Shown one piece after another: positions 27,521-55,986 of a stretch of DNA of 64,000 bases (position 1 is the first letter of the stretch; each line of letters opens with the position of its first letter). The position numbers and the translations under genes were made by a program. Origin of the DNA: an uncultured Nitrososphaerales archaeon. Its GTDB lineage: Archaea; Thermoproteota; Nitrososphaeria; Nitrososphaerales; Nitrososphaeraceae. The DNA lies in the NCBI GenBank assembly GCA_963709405.1, contig CAVPXM010000055.1:96001-160000 (forward strand). The letters run 5' to 3'. The notes beneath the pieces were generated by a model, which saw only the letters and a program-made list of their open reading frames with translations, did not search any database and was not told the origin of the DNA.

Positions 27521-27982
27521 GATAAATCCTGCTGATTAATCTAATATAAAAATAAGTGATTATGTTGCGAACTGAATTGCGGTAAATGACAATATTCAGG
27601 GCTGCGGTTTAACTATTTTTGAATTTTGGTAGTTTCACCAGGAATACATTTAATCTTTCTCATTATTCAAATAGCAAGGGAAGTTCTATTCAGGAATTGT
27701 GTCTGAGACTAACTTGTTATCGGATCACTTGGATTAATAAATAAATATTATTATCAACGTATGGGACAATATTAGATGTTATACGAATCCCACTACACGA
27801 ATCCTGCATAGATCGAATAACACATCTATTTGATAACGATTTACAGCACGTTAACGCATAAGCACTTTCAGAATGGGCTTGATCTATTAATATCTCTTAT
27901 CTTATCGTTGGGTGGTATATTAGCGAACGTAGATTACTTTACTAGATGCTTAGTACCTTCACAAGTCTAACAATAATCATTC

Positions 27983-28078
27983 GTTTGAATATTTCTAGCT
28001 TTTCTTACAACTGTTTATTCATACCTATACCTAGTATGCATGTATTAAGTTTCAATCCTATATTAGTCAAATTACAAC
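27983..28078 (-). CRISPR. Orphan mini-array remnant: one perfect 30-bp repeat (28049-28078), a 37-bp spacer (28012-28048) and a probable degenerate trailer repeat (27983-28011)
   Basis: 28049-28078 = GTTTCAATCCTATATTAGTCAAATTACAAC, identical to the consensus at 55395-55424. The upstream GTTTGAAT...TTACAAC keeps both repeat ends at spacer distance. Confidence 0.75.
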
Positions 28079-28102
28079 CTCAACTACTTTTCGGATAGGT
28101 TC
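28079..28102 (-). mobile_element. Isolated IS5-type left terminal inverted repeat fused to the CRISPR repeat
   Basis: CTCAACTACTTTTCGGATAGGTTC is identical to 55558-55581 and its reverse complement matches 54266-54289 at 22/24; followed by TAA (reverse complement of the TTA target). Confidence 0.88.
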
Positions 28103-28643
28103 TAAGTAACATTCTCCATTTGCCATCGCTGTGCGTACTGCGTTTCTAAGCTTGCTAAAAGATAGGTTTATCCGTTTGAACGACAGCTGTACACAAACGC
28201 CTTAGAACTTATTCTTAGATCGAGGGAGTACGGCATCGTGCAAGGAGCAAAGGCAAGATATGGGTGATACCCTCTTAAGCAACCAAGCACCAAGTCTGTA
28301 GAGAAATCTCAAGATATCACACATTGGATCCTAACGTACTAGACTAGTTGATACCAACACCTTGCAGGTCACCTTTCATGTGATTCCAGCAGGTGATATC
28401 TTTATCTTTTGTGTTACGACTACGCTATTGTAATTCCTAGTCGGGAGCTGTCCGATTCAGCTTTAGTATATGTCTCATATGGATTCGTAATTCTTACCTC
28501 GATAACTCGATTGCTTCGACAAGTAATGCAATCTATCAACTGTTCGCAACCCTACCTGCCTCTCAATCGGTTGCTGGGTCATCAAGTTTAACAGCTTACT
28601 GATATAATTTTTTTAATGTCGTGGATTGAATTTATTATTCAGG

Positions 28644-28730
28644 CGGGCCCGTCGGGAATCGAACCCGAGACAGCCGGATCTCTTCCGATTGATAAAAGTC
28701 CGGTACTCTACCTGGCTGAGCTACGGGCCC
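28644..28730 (-). tRNA. tRNA-Lys(UUU) with a 13-nt intron at canonical position 37/38 (28680-28692)
   Basis: Reverse strand folds as GGGCCCG acceptor, CCGGA-CT-TTT-A[intron]A-TCCGG anticodon arm and TCGGG-TTCGATT-CCCGA T-arm. Confidence 0.92.
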
Positions 28731-28901: not shown

Positions 28902-29007
28902 GCCCGGGTAGTATAGAGCTGCTGGGTTTGTTCCCGGCTTCATACATTCCGGTCCAGTATGGGGGACTGTCACTCCTTCGACCCGGGTTCGAATCCCGGC
29001 CCGGGCG
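28902..29007 (+). tRNA. tRNA-Asp(GUC) with a non-canonical D-loop intron (about 28917-28947, 31 nt)
   Basis: GCCCGGG/CCCGGGC acceptor, GGGGA-CT-GTC-AC-TCCTT anticodon arm, CCGGG-TTCGAAT-CCCGG T-arm; the extra 31 nt contain a GTAT/ATAC helix with 3-nt bulges (BHB-like). Confidence 0.9.
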
Positions 29008-29020
29008 TACATTTGTTAAC

Positions 29021-54252: not shown

Positions 54253-54265
54253 CTTCTTTAACTTA

Positions 54266-55253
54266 AAACCTATCCGAAAACTAGTTGAGTTTTATTGGGT
54301 TATAAGCAAACTGCATTTAATCAATAAAGCTAAGCTGTACTGCACTTTCTTCTGAGTTGTATTGATATCAGGTGCTACTGGAGTTGATTCATCGTACTCC
54401 ATACCTGATATTGTATGGGACAGACAGAATCATTGCATTGCGCTGCTACCGTCACCATCATCAATACATTGGAATAGAAAAAAGACTGGTCGTCCAAGAA
54501 TGAATGACAGGACGGCCATGAATGCTATTTTCTACGTCTTAAGAACTGGATGTCAATGGAAGGCTCTACCAAGAAGTCTTGGTGCTTCAAGTACAGTACA
54601 TGATAGATAGATTCCAAGAGTGGAGGAAAGAAGGTGTATTCAAACGCATGTGGATCGATGGATTGTCAGTATATGATTAAAATAATAGAATAGATTGGAA
54701 ATGGCAGGCTATGGATGGATGGTGTTATTACAAAAGCACCTCTTGGGGGAAAAAGTACAGGACCAAATCCCTACACACAGACAGACAGAAGTAAATCAGG
54801 TACAAAGCGTAGTATATTGGTGGTAGATGGTAAAGGAGTTCCTATTGGTGTATCCGTAGATGGTGCTAACAGACAGACATGATATGAAAATGAGTAAAAC
54901 AACACTTCAGAGTATAGTAGTAATCTATAGACCTGAACCAACAATCAGATCAAAGCAGCACATGTGCCTTGACAAGGGTTATGACTTTCCTGAAGTATAC
55001 GAATTACTAGAAGAAGAGTATGGTTATACAATTCACATCCGATTAAGAGGAGAAGAAAGTAGCAACATAAAAAGAGAAAAATTACCTAAATATAGAGCTA
55101 GACGATGGGTCGTTGAAAGGACTCATTCTTGGATGAACCGGTTTAGACGCTTGTTAATTAGATGGGAGAAAAAGGTAGAGAACCATACTGCGAAGTTACA
55201 TTTTGCTTGTGCTTGGATCACTTACAGAAAAGCAGGAATTTTCGGATAGGTTC
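54266..55253 (+). mobile_element. IS5-family insertion sequence (IS1031/IS427-like), 988 bp, defective
   Basis: Right IR TTTTCGGATAGGTTC at 55239-55253 pairs with the left IR; followed by TTA; transposase stop TAG lies inside the right IR. Confidence 0.9.
54362..55249 (+). pseudogene. IS5-family DDE transposase pseudogene
   Basis: GRPR...NAIFYVLRTGCQWKALP...STVHDR, LDKGYD and RWVVERTHSWMNRFRRL motifs; in-frame TAA at 54678 and several 4-bp duplications that shift the frame. Confidence 0.9.
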
Positions 55254-55557
55254 TTAGTCAAATTACAACGGTTCACCCTCCATATCTAACATTACTTCTT
55301 TCATGATGTTTCAATCCAGTATTAGTCAAATTATAACATTTTCTCGCATCTCATAGAGTTTAATGTTACTAATTGCGAATCCGGGAGCAACTAAGTTTCA
55401 ATCCTATATTAGTCAAATTACAACCATCAAGGCGAGATGTGTGAACACCGCCTAGTCATTGTTTCAATCCTATATTAGTCAAATTACGACACAACAACAT
55501 ACACACCTACAATCTCAGATGAAGAGTGTTTCAAATCTATATTAGTCAAATTACAAG
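55254..55557 (-). CRISPR. CRISPR array with 30-bp repeat (minus strand GTTGTAATTTGACTAATATAGGATTGAAAC), 4 full repeats + 1 half repeat, 4 spacers; no cas genes in window
   Basis: Repeats at 55254-55269 (half, cut at TTA), 55308-55337, 55395-55424, 55461-55490 and 55528-55557; unique spacers of 38, 57, 36 and 37 bp; the 3' ATTGAAAC end indicates minus-strand orientation. Confidence 0.93.
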
Positions 55558-55581
55558 CTCAACTACTTTTCGGATAGGTTC

Positions 55582-55986
55582 TTAATGGGCTCGTCTGCTA
55601 TCCTCACACAATTCTACTAAAACCCCGTTCATCGATTTAGGGTGAAAAAATGTGATTCTTCTATCATAAGAGCCCTTTCGGACATCTCCCAACATCCTAA
55701 TCCCATTGCTGCATGCCCTGGAAACGTCCTCCTGTATATTATCGGCAGTAATTGCGAGGTGATGGAGTCCCTCTCCATTTCGGTCAAGGAATTTATTGAT
55801 GGGACTATCTTTAGCAGTAGGTTCCATCAATTCTATTCTAGTATCTTCCAAATTCAGTATAGCAACTTTTACCTTCTCGTTCGGAACATCTTCTATGTGT
55901 ATCTGATTTATTCTAAACAACTTTTCATAGTTCTTCAAAGCTAGCTCTATATTATTAACTGCTATGGCAACATGATCAATCCTCAT
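55582..55986 (-). CDS. mce: Methylmalonyl-CoA epimerase
   Basis: IDHVAIAV, IELMEP, GEGLHHLA and FFHPK..NGVLVELCE motifs; clustered with the mutase. Confidence 0.94.
   Translation of the reverse strand: MRIDHVAIAVNNIELALKNYEKLFRINQIHIEDVPNEKVKVAILNLEDTRIELMEPTAKDSPINKFLDRNGEGLHHLAITADNIQEDVSRACSNGIRMLGDVRKGSYDRRITFFHPKSMNGVLVELCEDSRRAH

Follow-up and report, generated by a model that had tools for sequence, protein, structure and literature searches.

Truncated and complete copies of a CRISPR repeat fused to an IS5-family end in an uncultured Nitrososphaerales archaeon, probably a dispersed compound transposon carrying an array fragment

The window analysed here is a stretch of 64,000 nucleotides, positions 96001-160000 of contig C55 in the 100-contig assembly (G000) of an uncultured Nitrososphaerales archaeon. 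Near 28 kb, a CRISPR repeat runs directly into the end of an insertion sequence (IS). On the minus strand, the locus comprises the last 7 nt of a truncated first repeat (TTACAAC, 28005-28011), a 37-nt spacer designated b (28012-28048) and a 30-nt repeat designated R (28049-28078), which ends in ATTGAAAC on that strand and is identical to the array consensus and to 55395-55424. It is followed on the plus strand by E (28079-28102, tip at 28102), a 24-bp terminal inverted repeat of the IS5 family and of the left-end type, which is identical to 55558-55581 and differs at two positions from the left inverted repeat (IRL) at 54266-54289, read on the other strand. A target trinucleotide, TAA (28103-28105), adjoins the tip of E. 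The truncated repeat marks the left break of the copy, with unique DNA upstream that contains nothing of the element termed IS-A below. The element at 28 kb is not intact: 98 bp of it remain (28005-28102), truncated and with one end only. Its spacer b recurs with 100% identity on contigs C50 and C97, with one mismatch on C30 and in part on C49, and in three other copies b is preceded by the IS-A|TTA|GTCAAATTACAAC junction. Further along, ARAGORN reports an 89-nt "tRNA-Stop, anticodon tta" on the minus strand at 28642-28730, which by eye looks like a mis-read intron-containing archaeal tRNA, and a tRNA-Asp lies at 28931-29008.

The original prediction had described 28049-28102 as a perfect repeat followed by the same IS end as at 55558-55581 and ending at TAA, a description that holds in full. 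It had also taken the 54-mer to be shared exactly by the two loci. The junction point and the 24-bp end are indeed exact, whereas the repeat beside E at 55 kb (55528-55557) carries 3 mismatches to R in 30 positions, so that 51 of the 54 positions agree. As had been foreseen, similarity stops at the tip of E, beyond which the two loci are unrelated in sequence (TAAGTAAC versus TTAATGGG) and begin with TAA at 28 kb and TTA (55582-55584) at 55 kb, and the spacers adjoining the junction differ. None of 100 dinucleotide shuffles of the window matched R and none matched the 24-mer E, which indicates that the junction sequences are not a product of chance. Misassembly, named in advance as a possible refutation, was checked against contigs from public soil-metagenome runs of separate studies, which reproduce both sides of the locus: X5 covers 27525-28078, from the left flank to R, while X7 (28050-28166) and X1 (28063-28730) cover R|E to the right flank, no one contig spanning the whole copy. 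In one soil-metagenome run, a contig joins 27912 to 28556, lacking 643 bp (27913-28555) that include the mini-array remnant. This join was rejected as an empty site, given that its ends differ from those of the element and define no insertion. No empty site was found, and around 28 kb the intergenic DNA is unconserved in six genomes of the same genus, in which only two flanking anchors match.

The only copy complete at both ends in the whole genome lies in the same window, at 54266-55581. This 1316-bp unit is preceded by TTA (54263-54265) and begins with IS-A, an IS5-family element of 988 bp on the plus strand (54266-55253; IRL at 54266-54289, right inverted repeat, IRR, at 55239-55253), whose transposase gene is broken into at least four frames. 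Next come, on the minus strand, TTA with the truncated repeat GTCAAATTACAAC (55254-55269) and a mini-array (55270-55557) consisting of spacer a, R, a decayed c-R-g stretch of 57 nt, R, the palindromic spacer e (55425-55460), R, spacer f and the R with three mismatches. The unit is closed by E on the plus strand (55558-55581), inverted relative to the IRL of IS-A, and is followed by a TTA (55582-55584) equal to that at 54263-54265. The IRL and E, which agree at 22 of 24 positions, therefore face each other in inverted orientation with the cargo between them, and the unit contains the IS5 pseudogene and the array only. The flanking TTA/TTA can be read as a 3-bp target duplication of the whole unit. 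Equal trinucleotides also flank a copy at C21:283k (TAA/TAA), each such agreement having a chance of about 1 in 2, and TTA/TTA fits a simple insertion of IS-A equally well; the evidence for target duplication of the whole unit is suggestive only.

The partner end, which the original prediction had left to be named, belongs to an IS5-family element. E agrees with the IRL of IS-A as given above, shares only the terminal 15 nt with its IRR, and matches the left ends of whole IS elements in three genomes of the same genus at 22 to 23 of 24 positions, which identifies it as the 24 bp that form the outer part of an IS left end. The repeat is joined to the inner side of E (IS position 24), with the tip pointing away into the flank. 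This arrangement indicates a relic of an IS whose body has been replaced, and not an IS that was inserted into the repeat. The earlier view of the junction as a transposon end at a new site thus remains valid for the tip and its flank and needs amending for the rest, E being an inner-fused relic and the 28-kb copy a truncated one. Fragments of IS-A match the IS4/IS5 transposase domains PF13340, PF01609 and PF13586 in profile searches, with the frames broken in every copy. There are six IS-A copies in the genome, with at least 93.5% identity to the one in the window, and all of them end in one junction, IRR|TTA|GTCAAATTACAAC; none occurs away from an array. A seventh array (C63:86k) has kept an 18-nt relic of the IS-A IRR. 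The copies diverge by 2-6.7%, which suggests that the spread is old. In the IS-A tree, three copies with spacer a next to them separate from three with spacer b, and the pairs C21/C40 and C97/C50 are well supported. This division by spacer indicates that IS-A and the array were inherited together.

A second element, IS-B, is about 82% identical to IS-A and encodes, on C58, an intact transposase of 280 amino acids that matches NF033580 at 234.9 bits (cut-off 110) as well as PF13340 and PF01609. The IS ends are 15-nt inverted repeats, and those of IS-B differ from the tip of E by 1 and 2 of 15 nt. Each of the eight full IS-B copies is flanked by a matching pair, either TTA or TAA. The genome holds 132 IS-type ends, and 111 of 124 adjoin TWA; the next base is G in 68 of these 111, followed by T in 50 of the 68. 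TTAGTC, a hexamer within R, is the commonest flank of IS ends in the genome. Other repeated ends were also observed. One of them, beginning CAAGTGTCATATTTAATG, occurs in six copies (C49:12304, C51:23728, C54:49666, C58:2644, C58:32515 and C89:1828), each after CTAAGT or TTAAGT, and in another metagenome an end with this start directly adjoins E. A loose-end flank beside E in another metagenome run proved to be the end of another multi-copy IS and gave no empty site. A further IS-like end has three copies (C37:45880, C65:8911 and C87:14380) with identical flanks on both sides, which points to a segmental duplication or else to redundancy among the contigs of the bin.

Across the genome, R occurs 37 times at up to six mismatches, in 15 loci of one to five repeats. 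The R|E fusion is present at 11 loci, 10 found by a strict search and one on C59, in which R is one base short, and every one of them has a unique flank of its own. The original prediction had called for a genome-wide count, which gives many more junctions than the two first seen, and had anticipated a preference for TWA, which is present: TTA or TAA comes next at nine of the 11 junctions (8 of the 10 strict ones and that on C59), compared with a genome background of 4.95% (P = 1.5e-9 for the strict set). With 11 fusions, unique flanks and shared spacers, its proposal of a dispersed element family rather than a one-off accident is upheld. Outside this genome, R|E was found in none of 40 relatives, and a degenerate form of the pattern was found in neither species-representative genomes nor JGI metagenome contigs in exact-pattern scans that may have excluded the window's own record. 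Near-identical copies of R|E do occur in soil-metagenome runs of four studies. Apparent matches in the genus g12 were rejected: there, ordinary large arrays end in repeats that happen to be followed by CACAACTA.

The loci have the spacing of CRISPR arrays, with 30-nt repeats, 36-38-nt spacers and a period of 66-68 at 14 of them. These 14 mini-arrays draw on just seven spacer families, a to g, so that the spacers recur across arrays in place of being acquired uniquely in each: a is present at five loci, b at five and f at six, and e-type spacers are found in 11 of the 14 arrays. All arrays fit one arrangement, {a,b} < c < g, d < e < f < E, and none of 10,000 within-array shuffles was consistent with a single spacer order. 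Seven shared families in one order indicate that the mini-arrays are paralogous, ordered subsets of one parental array, which is the outcome that the earlier suggestion to compare spacer sets had in view. The parental array would have been thinned into these subsets by repeat-repeat deletions, which would also account for a constant IS|repeat junction with a changing first spacer. Divergence is of much the same size in R, in the spacers and in E (0.04-0.11 per site), and R, being no better conserved than the others, shows no sign of selection. The copies vary in their ends. Those at C50:68716 and C97:2766 are sister copies of IS-A with an array, carrying spacers b, e and f with an identical e centre; both stop exactly at the last repeat, without E, and have unique and different flanks. 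In five copies that lack an IS, just one IS end is present; at the left these copies are not alike, two of them starting at TAGTC preceded by A or C instead of the expected T. The C21:283k copy, bounded by TAA on each side, has apparently lost an IS.

Spacer family e is set apart by its symmetry. The 12 e spacers include two in tandem on C30, and each is palindromic, with arms (CTAGGCGG / CCGCCTAG) that are reverse complements on sight. Differences per site amount to 0.052 in the arms CATCTAGGCGG and ACCGCCTAGTCATT and to 0.483 in the centre of 12-13 nt, which is different in nearly every copy; the other families have 0.04-0.11. Ongoing hypermutation of the centre is unlikely, as e spacers in contigs from other studies equal those of G000 or differ by one base, with two further variants. 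This agreement suggests that the diversity is old and not ongoing, and a series of unlike e-type spacers was probably already present in the parental array. Of the palindrome, G000 has 11 occurrences, all of them inside arrays, and 200 other genomes of the family have one (G168:C17:1375-1400), which has a different centre and sits 20 nt past the stop codon of a 162-amino-acid ORF.

The only cas genes found in the assembly are on a separate contig, C46, beside a repeat different from R. Type I-B effector genes for Cas6 (C-terminal part), Cas8b, Cas7, Cas5 and Cas3 occupy C46:1024-7570, with an array of five repeats between cas6 and cas8b. In the crRNA sense, R shares 23 of 30 positions with this cas-linked repeat, 13 of them among the last 14 nt, and the orientation of C46 suggests that the crRNA sense of R would be the minus strand of the window. 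Cas1 had no match in the assembly, which is 91% complete, and no cas4, cas1 or cas2 follows cas3 on C46. The first 900 bp of this contig (C46:1-900) have 60-71% GC compared with about 37% in the rest and encode an ABC-transporter-like C-terminus, and the break cuts off the N-terminus of Cas6; this is probably a chimeric assembly join. With a chimeric contig start and an assembly of this completeness, cas1 may have escaped detection. None of the four spacers in the cas-linked array matched the IS elements.

Arrays of the R family are also found in relatives, in which arrays of 9 and at least 24 repeats have spacers that are all different, and the 19-nt core of the repeat is also present in Nitrososphaeraceae MAGs. 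These real arrays have a degenerate repeat on the side opposite to the position of E, which indicates that E occupies the position of the leader. The mini-arrays thus have E on their leader side and cas genes elsewhere. Against the repeat, the Rfam family CRISPR-DR2 scored 24 bits (E = 0.16), with a gathering score of 37. In G017, a genome of another genus of the family that is 98% complete, R-family arrays of at least nine repeats occur, with no match to Cas1 above the cut-off and none to type I-B Cas7, which raises the possibility that R-family arrays without cas genes are widespread in the family. At three loci of a MAG from another Nitrososphaeraceae genus (L009, L031, L034 and L038), a solitary R-like repeat lies within about 100 bp of conserved flank, this stretch being a multi-copy element that bears a single CRISPR repeat.

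Taken together, the 28-kb junction is probably a truncated copy of a dispersed compound transposon, made up of IS-A, a leaderless array fragment and a 24-bp remnant of a second, inverted IS, which spread by transposition and is now decaying. What was observed directly is a family of copies with shared, ordered spacers and flanks of TWA, in which IS-A is linked to the array and has diverged together with it. The use of the IRL and E as true ends, the origin of the R|E fusion and the lack of function are inferred. In the proposed course of events, IS-A would have entered the TTAGTC of a repeat and a second, inverted IS of the same type would have settled on the leader side, after which one deletion would have fused the last repeat to position 24 of this second IS. 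An IS5-family transposase could then have moved the unit into TWA sites, using the left end of IS-A and E as inverted termini of the left-end type. The enzyme may originally have been that of IS-A itself, and today could only come in trans from a related element such as IS-B. After dispersal, repeat-spacer units would have been lost by repeat-repeat deletion, IS-A lost or truncated, and the copies left to decay. The presence of the unit at several sites (six copies of IS-A with an array and 11 R|E ends, on unique flanks) and the signs of decay (transposase frames of IS-A all broken, many copies truncated) are consistent with this course.

Several points weigh against the compound transposon. 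Only one copy is complete at both ends, and its TTA/TTA, being also expected from a simple insertion of IS-A, is weak evidence. The C50 and C97 copies without E and the two IS-less copies that start at TAGTC are left unexplained by it, and the loss of IS-A from the five IS-less copies has to be supposed. Some IS|repeat junctions could be independent hits, as IS-B adjoins the same TTA|GTC site and TTAGTC is a favoured target. Finally, no empty site was recovered, the divergence among the IS-A copies points to an old spread, and the lack of function is argued from negative searches.

The function of the arrays is the issue on which the foremost alternative turns. The mini-arrays may be functional, their transcripts being cut by the host's type I-B Cas6 into guides against rival mobile elements, or serving as repeat decoys (RNA anti-CRISPRs) that protect the IS family. 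The genome does encode the effector proteins on C46, the cas-linked repeat resembles R above all in its last 14 nt, and, relative to the IRL relic, the array has the downstream position and the sense that the transposase gene has in the IS. Virus-borne mini-arrays and single repeat units with such roles are known, as described in passages of PMC11656645, PMC8616872 and PMC10651486. Yet no protospacer was found for any spacer family in the searches made. No spacer matches anything else in its own genome, or DNA near the insertion sites; in 200 genomes of the family only marginal matches appeared (E >= 0.002 in spacer ranges); viral contigs, scanned by exact words for three of the families (the arms of e, and words from f and from b), gave none; and neither did metagenome contigs for the e arms. 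The native leader has been replaced by E, the copies are truncated, and R, spacers and E diverge alike. The repeats of viral mini-arrays, moreover, are identical with the host's repeats according to the relevant passage of PMC11656645, as opposed to 23 of 30 here. This alternative is judged unlikely. Two RNA runs contained just 0.06 of the sampled words, too little to bear on expression. A more specific form of it, in which an IS5-family transposon recruited the mini-array as working cargo that is read from the IS end and cut by type I-B Cas6, with RNAs that disarm the host's CRISPR or target rivals, appears quite unlikely; the e spacers would then be guides diversified to match a hairpin target that itself varies, and this would make the element the first known case of an insertion sequence that carries CRISPR RNA genes and multiplies them. 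The lack of targets, the missing leader and an R that is no better conserved than its surroundings suggest that the array is most likely passive cargo and not working immunity.

The junctions might also be independent insertions, with arrays dispersed by another route and IS ends gathered at a preferred target in the repeat. TTAGTC is the commonest hexamer beside IS ends, and at two loci IS-B copies adjoin the same TTA|GTC site as IS-A in the opposite orientation. However, E meets R by its inner side, and eleven identical inner fusions cannot be repeated insertions, which contradicts this explanation for R|E. Nor is the reciprocal junction, a left half-repeat joined to an IS end, present anywhere in the assembly; the IS-A clades track the array type, and the DNA past the tips of E is unique and starts with TWA. 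We therefore regard this explanation as very improbable. Scattering of a single chromosomal array by IS-mediated inversions and translocations, without duplication, suits a genome so rich in IS-type ends, in which arrays are cut by IS elements; but fragmentation cannot multiply spacers, and with the same spacers in up to six loci, and e-type ones in far more, this is hardly credible. An assembly or binning artefact, by which a repeat was collapsed or made chimeric in a metagenome-assembled genome, has in its favour the 100 contigs, a contamination of 3.67% and the clearly chimeric start of C46, but can practically be dismissed in view of independent contigs from runs of four studies that show R|E with the same flanks and spacers, and of 11 junctions located within contigs and bordered on each side by unique sequence.

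Other classes of element were considered and set aside. A MITE does not fit IS-less copies with one IS end only and differing left ends. A CRISPR-associated transposon (CAST) was rejected on the 1316-bp unit, which is without Tn7/Mu or cas genes, and on spacers that match nothing elsewhere in the genome; CRISPR-guided transposition was rejected for the same gene content and for the want of a spacer match near the insertion sites. The viral type of mini-array or solitary repeat unit does not apply to a repeat with 23 of 30 positions in common with the cas-linked one and no targets found.

The compound transposon would represent a route by which CRISPR array DNA is copied around a genome by an ordinary IS, without cas genes, leader or adaptation. 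In metagenome surveys, copies of this kind look like orphan arrays, and they raise the numbers of arrays and spacers counted. The best target of the IS family, TTAGTC, lies within the repeat, which hints at why R-family arrays attract such elements. If the arrays were expressed, the exploitation of host CRISPR by mobile elements would extend to the simplest transposons.

Compound transposons of the Tn5/Tn10 type, passenger-carrying IS (tIS) and mobile insertion cassettes enclose a cargo between two inverted ends of one IS type. The unit described here resembles them in its two inverted ends of one type around a cargo, in the IS-family target, with what may be a short duplication, and in copies at different flanks. 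It differs in that its cargo is a non-coding CRISPR array fragment and not genes, that one IS is reduced to 24 bp fused to a repeat and the other has a dead transposase gene, and that most copies are one-ended remnants. With virus-borne mini-arrays and RNA anti-CRISPRs, as outlined in passages of PMC6858448, PMC10651486, PMC11656645 and PMC8616872, it shares short cas-less arrays with host-like repeats on a mobile carrier. Unlike these, the carrier is an insertion sequence with many chromosomal copies, the arrays have up to five repeats, the repeat is identical to the host's cas-linked one at 23 of 30 positions only, and no targets in related elements were found. Tn7-like and Mu-like CASTs also have a small CRISPR array beside a transposon end, according to parts of PMC11656645 and PMC8616872; the present unit of 1.3 kb is distinct in having no Tn7/Mu genes, tniQ or cas, an IS5-family DDE transposase and a TWA target.

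A parallel by lineage is provided by conjugative elements of Thaumarchaeota, for which the relevant section of PMC6563490 describes single large stand-alone arrays of 69 and 96 spacers that still gain spacers. Arrays on these integrated elements belong to the same archaeal group, are cas-less, lie on mobile DNA and have repeats related to type I-B, as far as that section goes (PMC6563490); those reported here, in contrast, have one to five repeats, are carried by an IS, were multiplied in one genome and contain no newly gained spacers. Inactivation of cas genes by inserted IS elements is the subject of a passage of PMC10359306. In those cases IS elements likewise enter CRISPR-Cas DNA (PMC10359306, same passage), whereas here an array fragment became part of the mobile unit. 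In the relevant parts of two reviews, the carriers listed are viruses, plasmids and Tn7/Mu-like transposons, and the term "insertion sequence" has no occurrence in the 2024 review. No IS-borne, multi-copy CRISPR mini-array was found in the literature searched. The order of parts in the complete unit, inverted IS ends around a cargo, is that of a Tn5/Tn10-type compound transposon, with a CRISPR array fragment in place of genes.
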